64,000 bases of DNA from an uncultured Verrucomicrobiae bacterium (GCA_963812605.1 CAWEWF010000002.1:125120-189119); one strand, 5' to 3'; shown: positions 46,067 to 59,895, counted from the first letter of the stretch. Notes: generated from the letters alone by a model not told the origin. Made by a program: numbers and translations.

Positions 46067-47653
46067 GTGGATAAGCCAATCACTTTTCAGGTTCGCGACG
46101 GGATGATTGTGGTCGTGTTTTTCATGGTGGCCCTGGCGCTGCGGGCGCCATTTCGGAGCGAATACGCCTACCATTGGGACAGCGCGGAATTCTCGTTGGC
46201 GGTTCGCCAGTACAACGTGGCGCTGAGCCAGCCGCACGCGCCCGGCTACTTCCTGTATGTGATGGCCGGGCGCCTGATGAACCTGCTGATTGGCGATCCG
46301 CACGCCAGCCTCGTGTGGTTAAGCGTCCTCTGCGGGAGCGCGCTGGTGTCGGTCTTGTACCTGCTTGGCGCGGCAATGTTTGGACGGCGCGCGGGAATCA
46401 TTGCCGCGTTGTTGGGGATGACCAGTCCCCAGCTCTGGTTTTACAGTTGCGTGGCGCTGACGTATGTCGTCGACGGTTTTCTCGTGTGTTGCGTGGTGCT
46501 GTACTGTTGGCGGGCAACGCAACGCGGGGGAACCTGGACGGATGCGGTGCTGGTCGGCGGATTGCTGGCGGTCGTGGGCGGGGTGCGCCAACAAACGGTT
46601 CCAGCGCTCGTGCCGTTGGTGGTGTGGTTTTTTTGGAGATTCGAGCCCCCGCGATTCGCGAAACTCGCTGTTGCGGGGGGAGTCTCGGTTGGGCTGGCGA
46701 TGATGTGGTTTGTGCCGATGGTGAGCGCTTCCGGAGGACTCGCATTGTATCTGGAAGTCGTGCGGCGACATGCAGTCCACACCGCCCCGTTGACATGGTG
46801 GGGAGGCGGGTGGGATGCCCTCTTGTGGAATGTATTTTTCACGGGCGTATTTTGCGCGGATGGTTTGATCTTGGGCAGCCCGGTGCTGGCGGCCGCGCTG
46901 GTTTGCCGGGCATCGGGCGCGAGGGCGGAGCGCGACAAGGTGTGGGACAAAGAAAACCGTTTTGCGCTACACAGCGCGCTGATCTGGGTTATTTCCGCGG
47001 CGACGATGGAAATCGCTGTCAGTTACACGAGGCTGCCGGGGTATGTGCTGAATTTTCTGCCCGGTCTTGTCCTTCTCACGGCGGCCGCCATCGCTTCGTT
47101 GCGGGCCCAATCTGCCAGAATTGTGGTCGTCTCCATTCTTTGCGCTGCCAACATCTTTGCGTTCCTGGCCTGGCCGGCGCGCTGGGATGGTTTGTTCTTC
47201 GGCACGGGTCGGACGGCGCGTGAGATTCGAAACCAAGACCAAACCATTTCGAAGACGGTCCGTATTCTCCGGGAGCGGTTCCGTCCGCGAGACGTGGTGA
47301 TCTGCCACGCCGTCGAGTACCTGCCTTTCGGGATGCGTCATTTCCAATACTACCTGCCCGAGTTCGACCAGTACCTGCTGTTATCGGACAAGGTAATGAT
47401 CGCTCCCAGCGGCAAGCCGATGATGAGCTTTCGCGAGGGGCAATTGAGTTTTGTGCCGGGACTCGATATTGTCGGAAAGCAAACAATCATTCTGATCGTG
47501 CCGCCCGGGAGACAATTAAGCGATTTTGGTCCGTACTGTGATGTGGAACGGGCAGCGCTCGTGCCGGATTCAGACGGGATCATTTATACATTGAATCCGA
47601 AGTGGCTATTTTCGACGGTGCACGGCGACGAACGTGGGCTCAGTTATCCTTAA
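46067..47653 (+). CDS. GT-C fold membrane glycosyltransferase-like protein (DUF2723/PMT-like)
   Basis: YHWDSAEF...PHAPGY luminal motif; 10 or more TM segments. Confidence 0.7.
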
Positions 47654-48254
47654 GTAGATTACGGAAATGCTGCCGGAACTTCGCCACTTTGGGCGCGATT
47701 ACCATCTGGCAATAGGGCTGTCTCCCATGCAGCCTGAAATACTCCTGGTGATAATCCTCAGCCTTATAGAACGCTTTGAACGGCGAAAGTTGCGTCACAA
47801 TCGGCCCGTTCCAAATCTTCGCCGCGGCGATTTCCTTGATCACCTCTTTGGCCACGGCCTTCTGTTCGTCATTGCGATAAAAGATTACCGACCGATACTG
47901 CGTGCCGACATCATTCCCCTGTCGATCCAACGTTGTGGGATCATGCACGGTAAAAAACACCTCCAGAATCACCTTGAGCGAAACGATCTTGGGGTCAAAC
48001 GTAATCTCGCTCACCTCCGCATGTCCGGTGTCGCCCGTGCAGACCTGTTCATAGGTGGGATTCGGCACGGTGCCCCCGGAATAACCCGATTCAACTTTTT
48101 CCACGCCCTTCAATTGTTCGAAGACCGCTTCCGTGCACCAGAAGCAGCCGCCGCCGACGGTGATGACTTCGTTCGCTTGCGAGTTGGTAGTGGTTTGGCT
48201 CATGGCATTCGTCCCCAGCACGACTCCTGCGATTAGTGCGATGGACCTCAGCAT
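47640..48254 (-). CDS. msrA: Peptide-methionine (S)-S-oxide reductase with probable signal peptide
   Basis: [27 protein letters not shown]. Confidence 0.96.
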
Positions 48255-48317
48255 ACAGATTCGATGCAATTGCCGAGACCGCCGATTCGCACGAGAGAAG
48301 CGAGCTACGGTTTTCGG

Positions 48318-49376
48318 TCAGGAGCGGGCGGCTTGTCGCTGTTGGCGGCGAATGGTCCTGAGGTGGCTGTAACCGACCAGTCGGTGGCGCTGTTCGTCCC
48401 ACAGGCGGAAGGTGAATGATTTGAAGCTGGAGAACAGGGTCACAGGCGGGACGGTTTGAAACAGCGGCTCGGCTTTATGGCACTTCTCCAGATTGTAGTT
48501 GGGAATTCGCGGGCTGAGATGATGGATGTGATGGAAGCCGATGTTGCCGGAGAACCACTGCAGCACCCTGGGCAGCTTGTAAAAGGAACTGCCCTTCAGT
48601 GCCGCCTCGGTATAATCCCACTCTTCGCGGCGTTCCCAGTAAACTCCTTCAAATTGATGCTGCACGTAGAACAACCATACGCCAGCCGTACCGCCCATTG
48701 CCACCACGCTCACTTGAATCAGCAGGTAGGCCTTCCAGCCGAAGACGGAAATCATGCCGCCGACCAGACCCACGAGCGCGAGGTTTGTCCAGTAGACGGA
48801 ATGCCGCTCCCGCTTGCTGGCGCCCGGAGAAGGAAGGCGATGCTTGATAAGAAACAAGGCCGCCGGGGCAATGACAAACAGCACGATGGGATTGCGCGCC
48901 AGCCGATAAGCGAACCGCTTCCAGCGCGACGACTCCAGGTATTCCTGCACGGTCAAGGTCCAGACATCGCCCATGCCGCGCCGATCCAGGTCCCCGGAAC
49001 TGGCATGATGCACTGCGTGCTCCCACCGCCACAGATAGTAGGGCGTCAAAGTCACCACCCCCGTGACAAATCCCCAAAAATCATTGGCTTTGCGGGATTT
49101 GAAAAATGAACCATGACCACAATCGTGAAAAATGATGAACACGCGCACCAAAAAGCCGGCGGTGAGAATTGCCAGCGGTACCGTGAGCCAATACGACACC
49201 GACAAACTGAGATACATCAAATACCAAAGCACGGCATAGGGAACGAGCGAGTTCGTGATCTGCCAGATGGAGCGCCACATCGAGGGCTCCTGATACTTGG
49301 CCACAACTTCTTTCCAAGGCATCGCCGCCGCCTGTCGTTCGGCATCCGTATGAACCAGTTGATCGATCATAGACAT
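48318..49376 (-). CDS. Membrane fatty acid desaturase (Des/delta-12-like)
   Basis: His boxes HDCGH, HAVHH, HHIHH; YVQHQF. Confidence 0.92.
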   Translation of the reverse strand: MSMIDQLVHTDAERQAAAMPWKEVVAKYQEPSMWRSIWQITNSLVPYAVLWYLMYLSLSVSYWLTVPLAILTAGFLVRVFIIFHDCGHGSFFKSRKANDFWGFVTGVVTLTPYYLWRWEHAVHHASSGDLDRRGMGDVWTLTVQEYLESSRWKRFAYRLARNPIVLFVIAPAALFLIKHRLPSPGASKRERHSVYWTNLALVGLVGGMISVFGWKAYLLIQVSVVAMGGTAGVWLFYVQHQFEGVYWERREEWDYTEAALKGSSFYKLPRVLQWFSGNIGFHHIHHLSPRIPNYNLEKCHKAEPLFQTVPPVTLFSSFKSFTFRLWDEQRHRLVGYSHLRTIRRQQRQAARS

Positions 49377-49516
49377 TCCTTTTGCGGGATTTCCCTCAAA
49401 CAAATGGTAGCTGAACCACCTCCTTGAGGTTCCGCTAAAGACACAATATACACCCCGGCTGCGCGGTCGGCAACACCCAATCTCAAAAAAATTTGGCGCC
49501 TCGCCCGCTTATGCTT

Positions 49517-51130
49517 TCACCACGAATAGGCGCCGGCGTCGTCGAGGGCGAGCAGGTATTCGCCGACCATCCGGCCCTGGTCGTCGAACGCACGGGGCGT
49601 GGCGATGGCGGCGAGAATGTGCCGGGCGTGTTCGCGCCAGGAGGCATCGCCCGTCATCTTTGCAAGGGCCGTGAAGAACCGCGCACAGGCCACGTTGTGG
49701 ACAAATGGGTGCTGGCGCTGCGTAAACACGCCCGCGGCATTCTCATCGGGTGTGTGCTCGAAATAACCGCCCGACGTGGCATCCTCGAAGTTCTTCACGG
49801 TCGCGAGGCCGATCCGTCTCGCGGCATCGCGATACTTTGTGTCATTCGTGATCATCGCGAGACGCGCCAGGCCCAAACCGAAAGCGGCTGCGTCTGCGAG
49901 GTAGAATGGGCCGGATTTTTTGTTCGCATCGTGCCAGACGCTGCCGTCGTCGGCGACGTGGGAGGCGAGAATGGCATCGGCGGCGATACGCGCGCGCGCC
50001 AAAACATGTGAATCATATGGATTTTCGGAACGCGCAGACCACAAGGCGTTTTCATAAAGCGTACATAACGCGGCGATAGCGAGGCCGTTTTCGTGGGCGT
50101 AGATGTGGGTGTCGATGCGCGGAAAACCGAGTTTGCGGCGGCCAGCATCGTCAAGCGCATAGTACGTATGGCCATCCACGAATGGTTTGTCTTTTTCGTG
50201 CGCATTGAGGTCCGCATCCTGAGTCGCGAAGAAAGTGCCGTTGGTCGAGGTGAAAAAATTCTCCAAGTAACTGTCTATCTTCCGGGCATCGGCGAGGAAT
50301 GTCTCGTTGCTCGTCACCTGCCAGGCGAGCGCGGCGGCCTCCAAATTGGCGGCTTGATACGGCATAAGCTTCTCGAAATGCGGTTCGTTCCATTGGCTCG
50401 CCGCGGAATACTGGTAGATGCCACCCCAGACCGGATCGATCAGCGCCCGTTGTTTTTCGAGGCTGAAAATGGCCCGCTGGAGGGCGTTGCTGTCGCCGTG
50501 CGCGGCGCGGCGAAGTTCAAATTCGATGTCCGCGCCCATGGGCGCCTTTTGTTGACGCCCCCACCCTCCCTCGCGCGGGTCGTACCAGTCGTCCATGTCA
50601 CGCGTAACGCGGATGCCGATCCAGCCGAGCGCATCCACCGGCGCGGAAGGATCGGCGGCGACCCGGTTCGTGTCCTTTGGATTCGCGCGCTCGATGTCCG
50701 CCAGCGCGGTTTTCAATTCTTCCGGCGCGAGATAGCCGCGGAATTTTCCAAGTTCTTCGGCATCGGGCGAAAAGATCACTGTCGCGGGCCAACCCCACGC
50801 GCCGTAGCGCTCGGCAAGGTCCGGACGCGCGTCGATATCGACGCGGATCGCCACGAAGCGGTTGCTGAGGGCGCGTCCGATGTCGGGGTCCAGGTAGGTC
50901 GTCTCGTCCATGACGTGGCACCAATGGCACCACTCAGCGGCGCAATCGAGGAGGATGAAGCGGCGCTCGCGTTTCGCGAGCGCGAAGGCCTCGTTCGACC
51001 AGGCGACCCAGGGGAAAAGCTGCTGGCGTCCGCGCTCGCGGGCCTTGGCGATATTAACATTGTCGGGAACGTCCGCGGCGGAGACATTCACCGCGGAAAA
51101 CAGGACACAGATAACGGCAAGGCGGCGCAT
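49517..51130 (-). CDS. Exported DUF255 thioredoxin-domain / (alpha/alpha) barrel protein (YyaL/SPATA20-like)
   Basis: Signal peptide; WCHWCHVMD, GWP, PHFEK motifs; 7 nt after DUF2063 gene. Confidence 0.88.
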   Translation of the reverse strand: MRRLAVICVLFSAVNVSAADVPDNVNIAKARERGRQQLFPWVAWSNEAFALAKRERRFILLDCAAEWCHWCHVMDETTYLDPDIGRALSNRFVAIRVDIDARPDLAERYGAWGWPATVIFSPDAEELGKFRGYLAPEELKTALADIERANPKDTNRVAADPSAPVDALGWIGIRVTRDMDDWYDPREGGWGRQQKAPMGADIEFELRRAAHGDSNALQRAIFSLEKQRALIDPVWGGIYQYSAASQWNEPHFEKLMPYQAANLEAAALAWQVTSNETFLADARKIDSYLENFFTSTNGTFFATQDADLNAHEKDKPFVDGHTYYALDDAGRRKLGFPRIDTHIYAHENGLAIAALCTLYENALWSARSENPYDSHVLARARIAADAILASHVADDGSVWHDANKKSGPFYLADAAAFGLGLARLAMITNDTKYRDAARRIGLATVKNFEDATSGGYFEHTPDENAAGVFTQRQHPFVHNVACARFFTALAKMTGDASWREHARHILAAIATPRAFDDQGRMVGEYLLALDDAGAYSW

Positions 51131-51137
51131 GGGTGTT

Positions 51138-52076
51138 TCACGGCTGGCAGAACCAACCGAACGAGGTCCATTCCCTGAACCACTGCTGCACCAGTGACGA
51201 CCAATCCCTGGCGGCGGACGCACGGCGCTTCAGAAGCACCGCACAGGCCTTCTCGATTGTCGCCCCCTGCTGCAAGGCCCGCAGAATTTCGAACTGTTCA
51301 CGGATGAGCGGCTTGTAATAGACCGAGTTTTCCATCCGATGCACCGCAATGTACAGCCGTTGCGGTTTCAGCCCGCGAAAGCTGATGCGCCGGGCGCGTT
51401 TGTGCTGCAATGCGACGGCGTTGCTGGCCTCGCCGCGCAGCCGGTCGTCGCCCTTCTTGGCCGCGATGAGCAAATCGTCCACGGGATAGCGCACCTCCAG
51501 CAACGTGATGTAGGGCTGCAACGCGAGACGGATTTTGGACGGATCGCGACCGAGCAAATCGTCCACATGGATGGTTGGCTTTGCCGCCTCGTCAAACGCG
51601 ACGATGTTGGCCCATTCGATCCGCACCATGTCGAGCGCCAACTGTTGATGCGGCGTGGTCCATTTCGGTTCCGCGCGCAGAAAACCTTCGACACGGCGCC
51701 CGAGATTGCGGAGCGAAAACGATTCCGAGGGATAACGCGCGAGATAGGCGCGCGCCAGCCGCTCAAACTTGCGATCGCCGAGGACCGCCCGCAGACCGGG
51801 ATAATCCTCGTACAGGCAGTCCAGAATGCGGAACCAGTATTGGCGGTTATAGATTTCCAGGCGTTCGAACGACGTAAGGCGGTCATTGGGCTTGATGATG
51901 GCCTCGGCAACGGGAGCGGAGGTTTTTTGCATCCGATCACGCGGCCCCAGCGGTCGCATGATCGCATTGGCCATGAGCGCCTGCAGTTCGCCGAGTTGCC
52001 GGGGCGACGCAACCTTAGGCGGACGCGGTTTTTTGCTCGAACTGGCGGATGAATTGGTTGGCTTTGAGCGCCTCAT
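51138..52076 (-). CDS. DUF2063 family RiPP partner protein (BufC/HvfC-like); start uncertain
   Basis: PNDRLTSFERLEIYNRQYWFR, DYPGL, YPS motifs; overlaps DUF692. Confidence 0.88.
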   Translation of the reverse strand: MRRSKPTNSSASSSKKPRPPKVASPRQLGELQALMANAIMRPLGPRDRMQKTSAPVAEAIIKPNDRLTSFERLEIYNRQYWFRILDCLYEDYPGLRAVLGDRKFERLARAYLARYPSESFSLRNLGRRVEGFLRAEPKWTTPHQQLALDMVRIEWANIVAFDEAAKPTIHVDDLLGRDPSKIRLALQPYITLLEVRYPVDDLLIAAKKGDDRLRGEASNAVALQHKRARRISFRGLKPQRLYIAVHRMENSVYYKPLIREQFEILRALQQGATIEKACAVLLKRRASAARDWSSLVQQWFREWTSFGWFCQP

Positions 52077-52869
52077 GGTGAACCTCGTCGAACGACGGAA
52101 TGCGGTCATCCCACTCCAACAGGGTGGCGGTGTTGCCGACCAATTTGACGGCGCGGGCATAGAGTTCCCAGACGGGGTCCAGCACCGGATGATCGTGGGT
52201 GTCGAGAATGTACTTTTTGAATTTGGAATGGCCCGCGATGTGGATTTGCGCGACGCGGTGATGCGGAACGTGGTTGACGTAATCGTAGGGATTGAAATTG
52301 TGGTTCTTCGAGGAGACGTAGATGTTATTCACGTCGAGCAGGATTCCGCAGTCGGCCTGCTCGACGACCTCGGTGAGAAACTCCCACTCGGTCATTTCGG
52401 AGACATGAAACTCGGCGTAGCTGCTGACATTCTCGACGGCAATGGGGATTTCGAGAAAATCGCTCACCTCGCGGACTTTTTGCGCGGTGACTTTTGCCGC
52501 CGCGAACGTGTAGGGCATCGGCAGCAGGTCGTGCGTGTAACGGCCATCGACGCTGCCCCAGCAGAGATGGTCGGACAACCACGGCGTCTTCGTCCGCTTC
52601 ACCAGGGTCTTGAGGCGATTGAGATGTTCGCGGTTCAACTTGTCGGCGGAGCCGAAGTACATCGAGACGCCGTGCTGCACGACCCGGTACTGTTCGAGAA
52701 TCTGGTCGAGCACCTGCAACGGACGGCCGCCATCGACCATGAAATTTTCGGAGATGATCTCAAACCAATCGACGACCGGCTTGCGCGTGAGGATGTGCTG
52801 GTAATGCGGCACCCGCAGGCCGATGCCGATACCGTAATCGGTGAATCCGTTGAAGCGGTTGGCCGGCAT
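52015..52869 (-). CDS. DUF692 multinuclear non-heme iron oxidative enzyme (MNIO, BufB/HvfB-like)
   Basis: GIGLR, FEIISEN, HGVS, SDHL, ENVSSY, LLDVNNIYV, HIAGH, DTH, LLEWD. Confidence 0.97.
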   Translation of the reverse strand: MPANRFNGFTDYGIGIGLRVPHYQHILTRKPVVDWFEIISENFMVDGGRPLQVLDQILEQYRVVQHGVSMYFGSADKLNREHLNRLKTLVKRTKTPWLSDHLCWGSVDGRYTHDLLPMPYTFAAAKVTAQKVREVSDFLEIPIAVENVSSYAEFHVSEMTEWEFLTEVVEQADCGILLDVNNIYVSSKNHNFNPYDYVNHVPHHRVAQIHIAGHSKFKKYILDTHDHPVLDPVWELYARAVKLVGNTATLLEWDDRIPSFDEVHHEALKANQFIRQFEQKTASA

Positions 52870-52887
52870 AGAATAGTTGAAATGATT

Positions 52888-52916
52888 AGTGGGGGCGGCT
52901 TGCGACCGCCCCCACT
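52888..52916 (-). terminator. Strong stem-loop between precursor and DUF692
   Basis: Perfect 11-bp stem AGTGGGGGCGG/CCGCCCCCACT with 7-nt loop; weak U-tract. Confidence 0.6.
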
Positions 52917-52937
52917 CGAATCAATCGCTGGTGTTGG

Positions 52938-53231
52938 CTACGGCGTGGGAGCAGGAGTGTTGGTCTTGCAACCGCCCTTGCCTTTGCAGGAGTTCTGGCC
53001 TTTGCAGCCGTTGTCGCTGCCCTTGCAGCCGCCCTGACCCTTACAGCTATTCTGCCCCTTGCAGTCGTGTTTGCCCTTGTCGCCGGTGTCATCCAACTGG
53101 CCCCAGCTCGACAGGCTCGTGCCGTTCGGGGTGGTCTTGGTCTGCTGGCTGGCATAGGTACGCGCGACCGCGCCCGTCATCAAACCGGCCATGGCAGCGC
53201 CTGCGAACAGTGCTTTCGTGGATCTCTTCAT
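52938..53231 (-). CDS. Secreted six-Cys RiPP precursor (bufferin-like metallophore precursor)
   Basis: Signal peptide; tandem CKGQNSCKG(Q/K)GGCK repeats; GGAGG RBS; directly upstream of DUF692. Confidence 0.9.
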   Translation of the reverse strand: MKRSTKALFAGAAMAGLMTGAVARTYASQQTKTTPNGTSLSSWGQLDDTGDKGKHDCKGQNSCKGQGGCKGSDNGCKGQNSCKGKGGCKTNTPAPTP

Positions 53232-54794: not shown

Positions 54795-56379
54795 TCACGC
54801 CCGCTTCTGCGGCCAGGTGTTCGTCGAGAATCTCCCGGACCGTCAACGCGCGGATGTTCGCGGCTTTGCCTTGCTGCTTGAAGAATCGATCGATTTCGGT
54901 AAGGCGCGTCGCCGCTGAGTAGTCGAAGGCGATGAAGAAGCCAAGCTTGTGCGGTCTTCGCGTGTCATCACTGCCTCGAATGCGTCGATATCCAGGGCGA
55001 CCGGCCTTGTCCTTCTGCTTCACCTGGATCGGATACCACACGTCCATGAACTCCAAATGGCCGGTTTCCTTACCGACGCTTCGCGGGCGCGGCGCTGACG
55101 GGATAAATGCGGCCGTCGATGCCCATGTCGCCGACTTTGACCTTATGTTCGGGATGCCGCCGAGCGCGATGACGGCCCAATTCTCGAACTCAAAAGGCGG
55201 AATCTCGCGGAGCTTTTCCTCTGTCCAAGGCAGATCGCGCACGACGAAACCGCGTCCAATCGCCAGAGTTTTTCATCTTCCGGCAGCTTGCAGACGTCGC
55301 GCAGGCGTTTCGCCATCACCCGGCAGGCTGTCGGCGAAACATCGATGCCGATCCACTGACGTTTCGAGATTCTGCGCCGCAACCAGCGCCGTGCCGCAGC
55401 CGCAGAAGGCGTCGAGCACGATGTCATTTTCGTTGCTGCTGGCTTTGACGATACGGTCCAGAAGGGCGAGTGGCTTTTGCGTTGGATAGCCGAGACGTTC
55501 CTGCGGCCTGCGAGTTGATCGGCTGAATGTCGTCCAAACGTCTGTCGAGCGGACCTGCCTTCTTCTCATCCAGATAGCGCTTCAATCGTGGCACTGCACC
55601 TTCGTTTGGCTGAATCCACCAGCCCTGCCTGTCGTAGCTTCTTCCATCCTTTCTTTGGTCCAACGCCAATACGGCTTTGTACTGCCAAGAAATTCATAAG
55701 TCAAGATTGGACGGTCTGGATTGCTGGATTCGTACAGGTCGTCCGAGTTGATATCGGCGACCATCGGGGTCGTCGCTGACGAATATTTTGCGGCTGTCTT
55801 TTCGTCAAGATTGTCGAGGTCGTATTCCATGAATGGACTGATTCCATGTCAACTCTTGCCGCCGCCGTAGTAAGAAAATCGTGTCGTGATTGTTTGCGGA
55901 TAGTCCTGTGAAAGCGAGACTCTGTGCGCCGAAGTTCGCTTCCAAATGATTTCGCTTTGGAAATTATTCTCCCCGAAAATCTGGTCGAGCATCACTTTGA
56001 CGTAATGGGAGGCGTGCCAGTCGCAGTGGTAGTAGAAGCTGCCGGTTTTTTTGAGGACGCGGGCGAGTTCGACGCAGCGCGGGCGCATGAATTCGATGTA
56101 GGCTTGCGTCGAGGCGTGCCGGTCATCGAACGAGCGCTTCTCTTTCGTCTCGCCCCAGAAGACTTCGTAGTTGCGGTTGGAGTTGAACGGCGGGTCGATG
56201 TAGATCAGGTCCACGCAGGCGTCGGGCAATTTCTTCAGTTGCTCCAGATTGTCGCCGCAGTAGATGACGCGCGTGTCCACGAGCGAGGAAGGTTTCGGGA
56301 AAGCTGCAGTCGGGGGAAGTGCGCGGTCGGGAGACCGGCGCACAACTTTGGAAGTGGGATCAGTTGCTTTCTTCGCCAT
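54795..56379 (-). pseudogene. Beta-class N6/N4 DNA methyltransferase fused to Mrr-like endonuclease domain, many frameshifts
   Basis: IYIDPPFNS (motif IV), YPTQKP, DAFCGCGT (motif I), FENWAV...IDG...IQVKQ...GFFIAFDY. Confidence 0.85.
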
Positions 56380-56986: not shown

Positions 56987-57451
56987 TTATTGCGGTTTCT
57001 TCTTTTCTCCGCAGGCCCGGGCGATGATGGCGTCGAGCGAAAAGATGCCGGGGCCGAAAATCCATACAATCACCGCCGTAAGCAGGAACAAAAATGGGGC
57101 GGCGCTCACGAAGGCATCGGGATTGGTGAAGATGCCTTTGACCTTGTCGGAGTCGGCAGTCAGGTAGGCGATGACCATGGTGAAGATGAGCGGGACCGTG
57201 ATGATTCGCGAACCCAATCCCAGCAGAAGGAGCAGTCCGCCGATGCATTCGGTGCTACCGGCCATGATGGCGTTCAGCTTGGGCATCGGGATATTCAAGC
57301 TCTGGAAAAAATCGGCGGTTTTATTCAGGTTCGCCAAGTGAGCCCGGCCGGTGACGAAGAATTGCCACCCCCAATAGAGGCGGATGATCAATAGGAACAG
57401 GGATTGCAGTTGCGAAACCAGGCTGACGTACGATGCGTACAGTTTCTTCAT
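56987..57451 (-). CDS. DoxX family membrane protein (BufD-like)
   Basis: RLYWGWQF, TECIGGLLLLLGL-SR, GPGIFSLD. Confidence 0.9.
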   Translation of the reverse strand: MKKLYASYVSLVSQLQSLFLLIIRLYWGWQFFVTGRAHLANLNKTADFFQSLNIPMPKLNAIMAGSTECIGGLLLLLGLGSRIITVPLIFTMVIAYLTADSDKVKGIFTNPDAFVSAAPFLFLLTAVIVWIFGPGIFSLDAIIARACGEKKKPQ

Positions 57452-57533
57452 GATTTCACCCCTTCGGTCAATCAAGCTTGCGCGCGGCCAGTTGCCTGAG
57501 TTGCGTGTATCCTATTCGCGGGTCGCAGACTTT

Positions 57534-58982
57534 TCAAGCCGCATTGTCGGGGAACCTGAGCACGACGGTCGTGCCCGTGCCCGGCGTACTCTCGATGGCG
57601 ACGGTTCCACCATGGAGCGCGAGGATGGACTTCACAATCGCCAATCCGAGGCCGAGGCCTTGCGGATGCTGCGACCGCGAGCTATCGGCGCGATAAAAAC
57701 GGTCGAAGATGCGCGGCAAATGCTCGGGGTCGATTCCCGTTCCCGTATCGGTGACACTGATGTCAACCCATCCATCGCTGGGGCGGGCCACCGAGATCAG
57801 CACCTTGCCGCCGCGCTCCGTGTAGTGCAGCGCATTGGAGAGCAAATTGCCGAGCGCCTGGCGGAGGAGCAGCGGATCGGCGTTCAACTGCCCGTCCCCG
57901 GTGCAGGCGACCTGCACGCCCTGTTCCTCGGCGACGATGTCGTAAAACTCCCGCACCGCATCGATCTCACGGCGCACATCCAGCGGCGAGCGTTTCAGCA
58001 CGGTCTCGGCATTCTCCGCCCGGGCCAGGAAGAGCATGCTGTCAATTAATCGCGCCAACCGTCCGCATTCCTCCAGGCCGGAGGCGAGCACACGCTGGTA
58101 TTCTTCCGTCTCCCGCGGCTTGGAGAGCGAGACTTCCGCCTCACCCATGAGGTTGTTAATGGGCGTCCTCAATTCGTGGGCCATGTCCGCCGAAAACTGC
58201 GAAAGCCGCGCGAAGGAATCCTCAAGGCGACCGAGCATTTCGTCGAAGGCCCCTGCCAGCGCTGTCAATTCCTGCGGCCAATCCGTTGTGCCGATGCGCT
58301 CATGGAGCTGCGTCGGGCCGATGCGTTGCGCCGCCGAGGTGATTTTTGCGAGCGGTCGCATTCCCATTCCCGCCACAGCGATGCCAGCGGCGGCTGACAA
58401 ACCCAAGCCCAACAGGACTACTCCGGCCAGCCGCAATGCAAAATTCTGAACCAGCCGCTGTTCTTTAGAAGTATCCATGGCAATCTGGATCACGTTCTGG
58501 GTGCTGCCGTCGGACCCGACCTGTCCCCGTGCCGAAGCCAATAAAAACCATCTTCCATCGTGTGTGTGGACCTTCGTAAAGCGCCTTGGTGATTCGGTCA
58601 TTTCGGAAGGCGGCGGGAATTGGAAACCCCGTAAAGCGTCATCCATGTGTGGCGTTGCCGTAAATTCTCGTCCCTCCCCGTCGATTACCCGCGCATAGTA
58701 ATTTGGGTAAATGCCTTCGACGAAGATTTCGTAGTCCAGGAACTTGCGACTACCCGGGAGTTCGCGCAGCGCCGCCCGGATATCATGCACCTCATCGTCC
58801 GCGAACTGCCCGGCCAGATGATCGACGCTCCGCGCCAGCATCCAATAGACCAGAACGCAGCACACCGTCAGCACCGCCGCGGCTGAAAGCGTGTAGAGCA
58901 TCGTCAGCCGAAACGTAATGGACGACCACCAGCGCCGTGGCGGGTACAAGCCGACCGGCTGCTCAACGGTCTTCGAGGACAT
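57534..58982 (-). CDS. Heavy-metal sensor histidine kinase (CusS/CzcS-like)
   Basis: 2 [42 protein letters not shown]. Confidence 0.9.
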
Positions 58983-59634
58983 AGCCGACCCCGCGAACGG
59001 TGTGGACCAGTTTTTTCGCGAACGGCTCGTCAATCTTTTGCCGGAGGCGGCGGACGGCGACATCCACCACGTTCGTATCGCTGTCGAAGTTCATGTCCCA
59101 AACCTGCTCGGCGATGATCGTCCGCGAGAGAATCTCGCCGGCCCGCCGGGCCAGCAGCGACAGGAGATCAAATTCCTTGGCGGTAAGATCGATGCGTTTC
59201 CCGTCACGCATGACTTTGCGGCGGGGAAAGTCAATTTCCAGGTCGCTAAGTTTCAGCGTCTCCACCGGCCGGGACGGGCCGCGTCGCAAAATGGAACGCA
59301 TCCGCGCGAGTAACTCGGAGAACGCAAAGGGTTTCACCAAATAATCATCGGCGCCCAATTCGAGGCCTTTCACCCGGTCGTGGACCTGGTCCCGCGCCGT
59401 AAGGAACAACACGGGTGTCTGTTTCCCCGCGCGCCGCAACTCCGCAACCACCGACCAGCCGTCCCGACGCGGGAGCATCACGTCGAGAACCACGAGATCG
59501 TAGTTCCCCGTCTGCGCGAGATGCAATCCCTCCTCGCCATCGACGACACAGTCCGCCACGTAGCCGCCTTCGGAAAGCCCCTTTCGCAAATAAGCCGCTG
59601 TCTTCGGTTCATCCTCGACAATCAGAATGCGCAT
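58963..59634 (-). CDS. Heavy-metal response regulator (CusR/CzcR-like, OmpR family)
   Basis: [44 protein letters not shown]. Confidence 0.92.
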
Positions 59635-59762
59635 TGGTTCATCTCCTTCGCAAATAGTCCTCCGGCACGGCTCCAAAGTACCGCTTCCCAACCTTGTTTG
59701 CCAAGAACTGGTTCTGCCTTTGATTACCCATCGCCGCTGGCTGCGGGCCGGCAATTCACTAC

Positions 59763-59791
59763 TTGACGGGGTGGACTCTGGACTGTAAAAG
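59763..59791 (+). promoter_or_regulatory. Putative sigma70 promoter of the mre operon
   Basis: TTGACG-N17-TAAAAG. Confidence 0.45.
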
Positions 59792-59895
59792 TGGCGCGGC
59801 TGTAATGACTTCGGGCCCCGACTTCGGTCAGACAAAGTCACCGTCGAGGGTCATCATGATTTTGAGTGGAGGGTGTGGGGAGACAAGCGATTTAG

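Follow-up and report, generated by a model that had tools for sequence, protein, structure and literature searches.

What is a gene for an exported DUF255 protein doing at the end of a bufferin operon? The question is raised by a locus on the minus strand (positions 49517-53231) of a 64,000-nucleotide stretch of DNA from an uncultured Verrucomicrobiae bacterium (GCA_963812605.1, CAWEWF010000002.1:125120-189119), hereafter the window, in which open reading frame (ORF) listing places four closely packed genes in the order precursor, MNIO (DUF692), DUF2063 and DUF255. Bufferins are described as among the most extensive families of peptides that are synthesized by ribosomes and modified post-translationally (RiPPs) and as a widespread copper defence, in which the role of the DoxX protein is given as unknown (PMC11626156, PMC12452194). 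Their core gene set is described as precursor, MNIO, DUF2063 protein and DoxX, with further conserved genes occurring 'in extremely low proportions' (PMC12452194), and a preliminary sequence-only reading of the locus was correct in placing DUF255 outside this described core. We find that the operon is of a known kind, Buf2, with a conserved accessory DUF255 gene that is undescribed in the literature searched, and we infer that the product of this gene may serve the thiol chemistry of the mature peptide.

The operon and its precursor peptide

Together, the first three genes, all on the minus strand, make up a bufferin cluster of the ordinary Buf2 type (BUF_6/12Cys). The bufA2-type precursor gene (52938..53231, 97 aa) has GGAG 7 nt ahead of its ATG and is followed by bufB (52015..52869, 284 aa), which encodes the MNIO bufferin maturase (PF05114, 353.6 bits; NF050167 MNIO_BufB, 344.4 bits, cut-off 310) and is the sole BufB match in the genome (4.17 Mb, 90% complete). 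The product of bufC (51138..52076) is the DUF2063 partner (PF09836, 58.6 bits against 27.2), matching the HvfC model NF050145 with merely 36.3 bits against 142. The fourth gene (49517..51130, 537 aa), for the exported short DUF255 protein, lies in an ORF spanning 49517-51223, and from the ATG at 51130 its product starts with the signal-like segment MRRLAVICVLFSAVNVSA before AD. Only 7 nt separate this ATG from the bufC stop, and the gene is predicted to be translationally coupled to bufC. Either of two ATGs may open bufC itself: 52076, which has GAGG ahead of it and would make the gene overlap bufB by 62 nt, or 51974, which would put 40 nt between the two genes. The sequence-only reading had likewise described four packed minus-strand genes with an overlap and then a 7-nt gap, of which the packing and the gap stand, whereas the overlap is plausible but not certain given the two possible bufC starts.

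Buf2 precursors carry a Sec signal and six conserved Cys (PMC11626156, PMC12452194). In Caulobacter the four central Cys are each shifted by -4 Da (thiooxazoles), CysI and CysVI are likely joined by a disulfide, and a minor species of -20 Da has been read by analogy with Buf1 as carrying a further labile S-S bond (PMC11626156). Caulobacter is the one organism for which conversion of Cys to 5-thiooxazoles and periplasmic copper binding have been established. The precursor in the window has a basic-hydrophobic signal-like N-terminus with cleavage likely after TYA27, then a Thr/Ser-rich spacer, and a core of six Cys spaced 5,5,6,5,5 and made of two CKGQNSCKGxGGC units. It scores 31 bits against the BufA2 model of NCBIfam (NF050166), under the cut-off of 60; this model looks tuned to proteobacterial precursors, those examined having Cys spacing 5,5,6,5,12. 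We built an alignment of the window precursor and 14 more, taken from Verrucomicrobiota, Acidobacteriota and Planctomycetota; 8/15 belong to clusters with DUF255 and 7/15 to clusters without. All six Cys and the surrounding KG/GG residues are invariant in 15/15 sequences, with or without DUF255, indicating that the precursor is ordinary for these phyla, and a new class of CKG-repeat precursor, which we had entertained, was rejected since the core is common to clusters lacking DUF255. The translation and this alignment thus agree with the signal peptide, Thr/Ser spacer and six-Cys core proposed from the sequence, and the PF05114, NF050167 and PF09836 scores with the proposal of a RiPP operon of the MNIO/DUF2063 sort whose exported, Cys-rich product is a bufferin-type peptide. 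The suggestion that the precursor or the whole system was undescribed found no support, as the precursor is of the standard Buf2 type, its core is invariant across 15 clusters and the chemistry has been published (PMC11626156). Some verrucomicrobial precursors (L083, L086, L088, L090, L091, L094 and L098) have 2-5 extra Cys before the six-Cys core, arranged in C-x-G-K-D-x-C repeats and bringing the total to 8-11 Cys.

Between bufA and bufB, 3' of the precursor stop, RNA folding predicts a GC-rich hairpin on the same strand (52883..52923) with a 12-bp inner stem and a free energy of -29.8 kcal/mol (z -4.42; 0/200 shuffles fold as well). The hairpin has no trailing T-run and is absent from the terminator scan list; it is a possible attenuator or mRNA stabiliser that would let the precursor transcript exceed those of the enzymes.

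The DUF255 protein is a short, exported form

The fourth gene product matches PF03190 (DUF255/Thioredox_DsbH) with 83.1 bits against 27 and is organized as a signal peptide, a thioredoxin domain (motif W-C-H-W-C-H-V-M; cis-Pro loop G-W-P-A-T) and an (alpha/alpha)6 barrel. An AlphaFold2 model built from 26 relatives (pLDDT 87.5, pTM 0.90) has a thioredoxin fold with twelve helices after it; its nearest Foldseek match is 7tkv_A (E 5e-22, TMq 0.73), followed by the (alpha/alpha)6 barrels of cellobiose/glucose 2-epimerases (AGE-type) and GH76 mannanases (E ~1e-9). A profile search of PDB sequences with DUF255 recovered 7tkv (3.5e-29) and 3ira (1.8e-20). The Pfam match, the model and the Foldseek result together bear out the secreted WCHWC thioredoxin plus (alpha/alpha) barrel protein named by the sequence-only reading. 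In NCBIfam the protein also weakly matches the DsbD C-terminal domain and DsbH, far under their cut-offs (DsbH 19 against 190).

Across 81 aligned DUF255 relatives the motif W-C-H-W-C-H-x-M, the cis-Pro P115 and other positions are invariant (81/81; 21 residues beyond the motif), ten of the invariant residues lying in the barrel (D232, G236, G237, Q240, Y241, S242, W247, E253, D340 and D413). As the thioredoxin motif and the barrel residues are both invariant, both domains are under selection. Judged by eye, the relatives have hydrophobic N-terminal segments directly ahead of the thioredoxin domain, and myxobacterial relatives have lipoprotein-like L-x-G/A-C boxes.

With 537 aa and a signal peptide, the protein does not fit the canonical long DUF255 form of about 670-800 aa, which has no signal peptide. 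Searched with the short-form profile, long forms reach 140-167 bits and cover its first 350 positions alone; a long copy elsewhere in the window's own genome (C4, 758-aa frame) is likewise a weak match. By its sequence, then, the protein in the window is a member of a distinct short, exported subfamily. Prediction of a complex between the mature forms of DUF255 (residues 22-537) and the precursor (28-97) gave a score of 0.01 against a mark of 0.32, in a run made without controls that speaks neither for nor against binding.

Short DUF255 genes are linked to bufferin clusters

We scanned one genome per species and obtained 80 loci with DUF255 relatives, in which neighbours were counted from tblastn matches to the window's proteins and not from neighbourhood maps, the latter being rough and drawn with a GC3-weighted ORF caller. 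In this genome set bufB lies within 7 kb of DUF255 in 17/80 loci; another 5 have only a bufA-like gene and the remaining 58 neither. A second, independent metagenome set gave bufB within 4.5 kb in 20/80 loci, and in 12/32 of those flanked by 3 kb or more on either side. The metagenome set leaves out proteins that are 71-86% identical, and the context of the window's closest clade is seen in L002 alone. Loci in which bufB is linked to DUF255 span Verrucomicrobiota, Acidobacteriota, Planctomycetota, Bdellovibrionota, Alphaproteobacteria and Gammaproteobacteria.

Gene order in these loci varies considerably. The order bufA-B-C-DoxX-DUF255 is found in L020, L040, L047, L056, L066, L088 and L098, and bufB-C-DUF255 without DoxX in the window, L002, L051 and L081. 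DUF255 precedes bufA-B-C-DoxX in L036 and L048, the order CcdA-DoxX-DUF255-bufA-B-C occurs in L026 and L028 (L024 ends after DUF255), L069 is convergent, and in L055 and L074 DUF255 is followed by bufA alone with no MNIO nearby. That the linkage is kept through these rearrangements points to a functional tie between DUF255 and bufferins, and the recurrence of the four-gene arrangement in many unrelated genomes indicates that it is not due to chance. The closest counterpart, L002, has the same gene order as the window with 81-96% protein identity; at the DNA level the two are 85% identical from 53573 down to 48308, with the similarity resuming over MsrA, and differ further upstream. No DoxX match was found in L002 by tblastn. 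Contig L109, which again has the order bufB-bufC-DUF255-desaturase-MsrA, was not counted as an independent case because, with overlapping matches in several frames, it looks like an error-rich contig from a near relative.

From the bufferin side, 300 other Verrucomicrobiota genomes were sampled, 18 of which have BufB above cut-off, and all 18 loci were taken (L082-L099). DUF255 is present in 2/18, both times after DoxX, which itself occurs in 14/18. DUF255 is therefore a minority accessory of bufferin clusters: the sequence-only reading had been staked on the gene being conserved beside such clusters, which it is (17/80 and 20/80 loci), but in a minority of them. Four loci of this sample (L092, L096, L097 and L099, from G279, G093, G111 and G132, respectively) stand apart in having bufB-bufC with 67-69% identity in genomes of 2.2-2.4 Mb and adjoining a conserved block of five other genes (c25-c29). 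No Buf2 precursor or DoxX was detectable in these four loci, which may have a different precursor type.

Co-occurrence in genomes and two probable recruitments of DUF255

The association extends to genomes in which the two genes are apart. Among 20 genomes with a short DUF255 gene that is not beside bufB, a BufB match is present elsewhere in 19, 17 of these above cut-off, and adding the genomes with bufA only (4/5 with a BufB match) gives a total of 23/25 for non-adjacent copies. Both BufB-less genomes are metagenome-assembled and possibly incomplete, one being 2.0 Mb in size. In the Verrucomicrobiota sample the full-length short form (>400 bits) occurs in 3/301 genomes (G000, G012 and G117), all of them BufB-positive, against a BufB frequency of 19/301; the matches in 16 further genomes (140-167 bits, frames of 678-895 aa) are the long form. 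Similarly, in an Acidobacteriota class the short form is confined to 5/151 genomes that all fall within the 38/151 BufB-positive ones, none of the five copies being adjacent to bufB and one of the five genomes being the chosen centre of that sample. Comparative genomics thus shows the short DUF255 subfamily to be functionally tied to bufferin systems.

A quick maximum-likelihood tree of 81 DUF255 sequences (LG+G4, SH-aLRT supports, midpoint root) resolves two clades, each with 100% support. Clade 1 comprises 17 Myxococcota sequences with the window and L002 nested inside (SH-aLRT 99 and 98), and clade 2 comprises 62 sequences that roughly follow phyla and include all other buf-linked copies (18 with bufB, 5 with bufA alone). 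BufB was found elsewhere in all five of the myxobacterial genomes checked. The window operon therefore carries a different DUF255 lineage where other Verrucomicrobiota have DoxX-DUF255, which suggests that its copy was recruited independently, making two recruitments overall, possibly by transfer.

A putative thiol-redox partner of bufferin

How might the DUF255 protein contribute? Taking the published Caulobacter system as a template, bufA2 would give a Sec-exported six-Cys peptide, BufB and BufC would turn its inner Cys into thiooxazoles in the cytoplasm, and the exported peptide would bind copper in the periplasm. There the CHWC site of the thioredoxin domain would act as a thiol-disulfide reductase that keeps or restores the bufferin thiooxazole thiols and/or Cys in the reduced state, for Cu(I) binding under oxidising copper stress, and the (alpha/alpha)6 barrel would hold the peptide. 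Electrons would come from a membrane partner, either a CcdA/DsbD-type protein or DoxX or both, which adjoin DUF255 in relatives and would be encoded elsewhere in the window's genome. This reading of the exported DUF255 protein as the periplasmic thiol-redox partner of bufferin, a CHWC reductase with its barrel as a peptide platform, is the one we favour, giving it about an even chance of being right.

CcdA/DsbD proteins carry electrons outward, reducing periplasmic thioredoxin-like proteins. A CcdA/DsbD_2 membrane gene (PF13386, PF02683) lies ahead of DoxX-DUF255 in L024, L026 and L028 and comes last in the cluster of L057, being adjacent in 4/80 genome loci, and a CcdA-like match accompanies DoxX-DUF255 in 9/80 metagenome loci. 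A reductive role for DUF255 is favoured because of these adjoining genes. A further clue is the published finding that the thiols of thiooxazoles are able to enter a labile S-S bond (PMC11626156). In about a dozen loci DUF255 has DoxX directly upstream on its own strand, and the two genes travel together: in Verrucomicrobiota they follow bufC, in Alphaproteobacteria they precede bufA. Two single loci have further redox genes: in Methylobacterium a plain thioredoxin gene and then CcdA/DsbD_2 close the cluster (L057:12195-13356), and in a member of the Tepidisphaeraceae an NDH-2-like flavoprotein gene lies between bufC and DoxX (L047:4651-6009). A broader proposition, which we put forward tentatively and think somewhat unlikely as a whole, is that short DUF255, DoxX and CcdA/thioredoxin, with the NDH-2-like protein in one locus, would constitute a dedicated electron chain that redox-cycles thiooxazole metallophores in the periplasm. 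In that case bufferins would be copper traps that are actively kept up and can be regenerated, not passive sponges, and DUF255/SSP411 proteins would be a class of reductases whose barrel clasps Cys-rich metal-binding peptides.

Several observations weigh against a dedicated reductase. Caulobacter Buf2 works without DUF255 (PMC11626156), and 16/18 of the other verrucomicrobial clusters lack the gene, as do most Buf2 clusters, from which it follows that DUF255 is not needed for the core chemistry. The WCHWCHVM motif also occurs in the long, presumably cytoplasmic DUF255 form (e.g. 7tkv) and is not specific to bufferin systems, and the 17 Myxococcota sequences, the closest relatives outside the window's own clade, are never buf-adjacent. 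The window operon includes neither CcdA nor DoxX, and a reductase cannot be told from an oxidase by sequence. Related genomes are not independent, so that the co-occurrence counts overstate their statistical weight, and the ORF calling behind the neighbourhood maps is rough. No RNA sequencing run matching the locus was found, and six soil-metagenome DNA runs share no more than 0.40 of the sampled words with it.

DoxX proteins are quinone-linked membrane oxidoreductases, and with DoxX as a quinone-linked reoxidant in the manner of DsbB or VKOR, DUF255 could instead be an oxidase or isomerase, DsbA- or DsbC-like, that forms or corrects the CysI-CysVI disulfide. The mobility of the DoxX-DUF255 pair as a unit in about a dozen loci is what such a couple would lead one to expect, and mature Caulobacter bufferins have a structural disulfide (PMC11626156). 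The CcdA/DsbD-type genes in the same clusters, however, carry electrons outward, the NDH-2-like gene before DoxX in one locus would supply electrons and not remove them, and a private 54-kDa oxidase seems excessive for a six-Cys peptide that has a single disulfide, so that we consider this role quite unlikely.

A small chance also attaches to direct copper handling, in which C-H-W-C-H-V-M would bind Cu(I) or reduce Cu(II) and DUF255 would exchange metal with bufferin in a Sco-like manner. Cys, His and Met ligands are packed in this one invariant motif, a heavy-metal two-component system is encoded next to the locus, and bufferins are copper-stress genes (PMC11626156). Yet the motif is kept in the long DUF255 form, which is widespread outside copper contexts, and no other copper-resistance gene is found among the recurrent neighbours of DUF255 loci.

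Periplasmic Msr enzymes require a thioredoxin-like donor fed by DsbD or CcdA, and DUF255 might be such a donor, i.e. a general envelope redox-repair enzyme that reduces, for example, exported MsrA and is merely co-regulated with bufferins. An exported MsrA is indeed encoded downstream in the window and in L002, directly after DUF255 in L066 and nearby in L035. Counted over the loci, MsrA is near in only 3/80 of the genome set and 1/80 of the metagenome set (the error-rich L109), as against bufB in 17 and 20, and the bufA-type gene directly after DUF255 in L055 and L074, where there is no MNIO nearby, points at the peptide; we see only a slim prospect for general repair. That the barrel is a further tailoring enzyme, hydrolase- or epimerase-like, acting on the peptide, with the thioredoxin domain merely docking it, is highly improbable: the barrel resembles AGE-family epimerases and GH76 enzymes and its ten residues invariant in 81/81 are as conserved as CHWC, but the precursor core is identical with and without DUF255 and has no evident extra tailoring site, and the barrel residues are family-wide and common to 7tkv.

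Should the protein be the periplasmic thiol-redox partner that we favour, this would be the first functional context for the DUF255 family, which has no known function from bacteria to animals. The nesting of such an accessory within bufferin-bearing genomes suggests that the sulfur ligands of the peptide require upkeep in the oxidising periplasm.

Genomic surroundings

The usual fourth bufferin gene, DoxX, is present in the window outside the operon, 3.7 kb upstream of bufA (56987..57475, minus strand). The encoded membrane protein matches PF07681 with 70.4 bits and the HvfX-family model NF050144 with 68.7 bits, under the cut-off of 80, and is 43-60% identical to DoxX proteins within other verrucomicrobial buf clusters. 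Directly upstream of DoxX, on the minus strand, are a response regulator and then a sensor kinase of a heavy-metal two-component system (57534..59841; TIGR01387, 348.3 bits against 279.2 for the response regulator, and TIGR01386, 397.2 bits against 292.55 for the sensor kinase), which is a candidate regulator of the buf locus. DoxX and bufA are separated by a split N6_N4 DNA methyltransferase gene (55273-56379, minus strand), whose profile is matched in two different frames, positions 1-84 by ORF 55849-56379 and positions 136-203 by ORF 55273-55569, probably the remnant of a dead restriction-modification system.

Downstream of the DUF255 gene, also on the minus strand, lie a DesA-like fatty-acid desaturase gene (48318-49403) and, two genes from DUF255, the gene for MsrA with a signal-like N-terminus (47640-48269); the order DUF255-desaturase-MsrA is kept in L002 and in the contig L109. 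The terminator scan revealed no clear intrinsic terminator 3' of the DUF255 gene, where the stretch folds like its shuffles (z -0.66), and a promoter-like site ahead of the desaturase gene (49473-49445) is to be read against 1.5 such sites expected by chance in the region.

Encoded repeatedly at the edges of Buf2 clusters is an exported protein of ~300-340 aa that has the motif HEMVH...EEG (HExxH) and matches nothing in Pfam or NCBIfam (e.g. L066:2206-3108, L035:6023-7051 and L048:7464-8531). It was found in 10 loci of the genome set, with matches in 15/80 metagenome loci, and the window's own genome has a copy with 54% identity (G000:C15:25915-26787) and a second, broken copy on C14. This protein may be a metallopeptidase that processes bufferins.

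Comparison with known systems

The literature searched gave no account of DUF255 in bufferin clusters. The word 'thioredoxin' is absent from the main texts of PMC12452194 and PMC11626156, and Thioredox, DUF255 and DsbH from two supplementary spreadsheets of PMC12452194, the PDF supplement lying outside the search. Of 262 publications matching DUF255/YyaL/SSP411/SPATA20, the 25 listed mostly concern animal SSP411/SPATA20, and no title among them indicates a function for a bacterial DUF255 protein.

The only full-length DUF255 structure found by Foldseek is that of Bab1_2064 of Brucella abortus (PDB 7TKV, labelled uncharacterised), a long DUF255/YyaL/SSP411 form with the same CHWCHVM thioredoxin plus barrel. 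Its chain is ~130 residues longer than the DUF255 protein of the window and 22% identical to it, and the short form differs in having a signal peptide. The exported CxxC thioredoxin fold with a cis-Pro is shared with the periplasmic reductases TlpA, ResA and CcmG and with chlamydial DsbH, and to our knowledge none of these families has a fused (alpha/alpha)6 barrel. As for reductases fed by DsbD or CcdA, CcdA/DsbD_2 genes adjoin DUF255 in relatives, though not in the window operon.

Among bufferin clusters, the verrucomicrobial loci L082-L099 are of the bufA2-bufB-bufC-DoxX type catalogued in PMC12452194 and have the same precursor core as the window, with BufB proteins 67-84% identical. They have DoxX after bufC in 14/18 cases, whereas in the window DUF255, of the other clade, directly follows bufC. 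The best described relative is buf2ABC of Caulobacter vibrioides (CCNA_02999-03001; Leprevost et al., PNAS 2024, PMC11626156), which, like the window, has a Sec-exported six-Cys precursor, BufB and a DUF2063 protein in an operon without DoxX. Its copper-stress context is plausible for the window as well, given the adjacent heavy-metal two-component system, which is the likely regulator here where Caulobacter employs SigF/NrsF. The window precursor departs from that of Caulobacter in being of the internally duplicated 5,5,6,5,5 type of Verrucomicrobiota, Acidobacteriota and Planctomycetota, and the operon in adding to the three buf2 genes a fourth, for a putatively exported DUF255 protein, apparently coupled to bufC.

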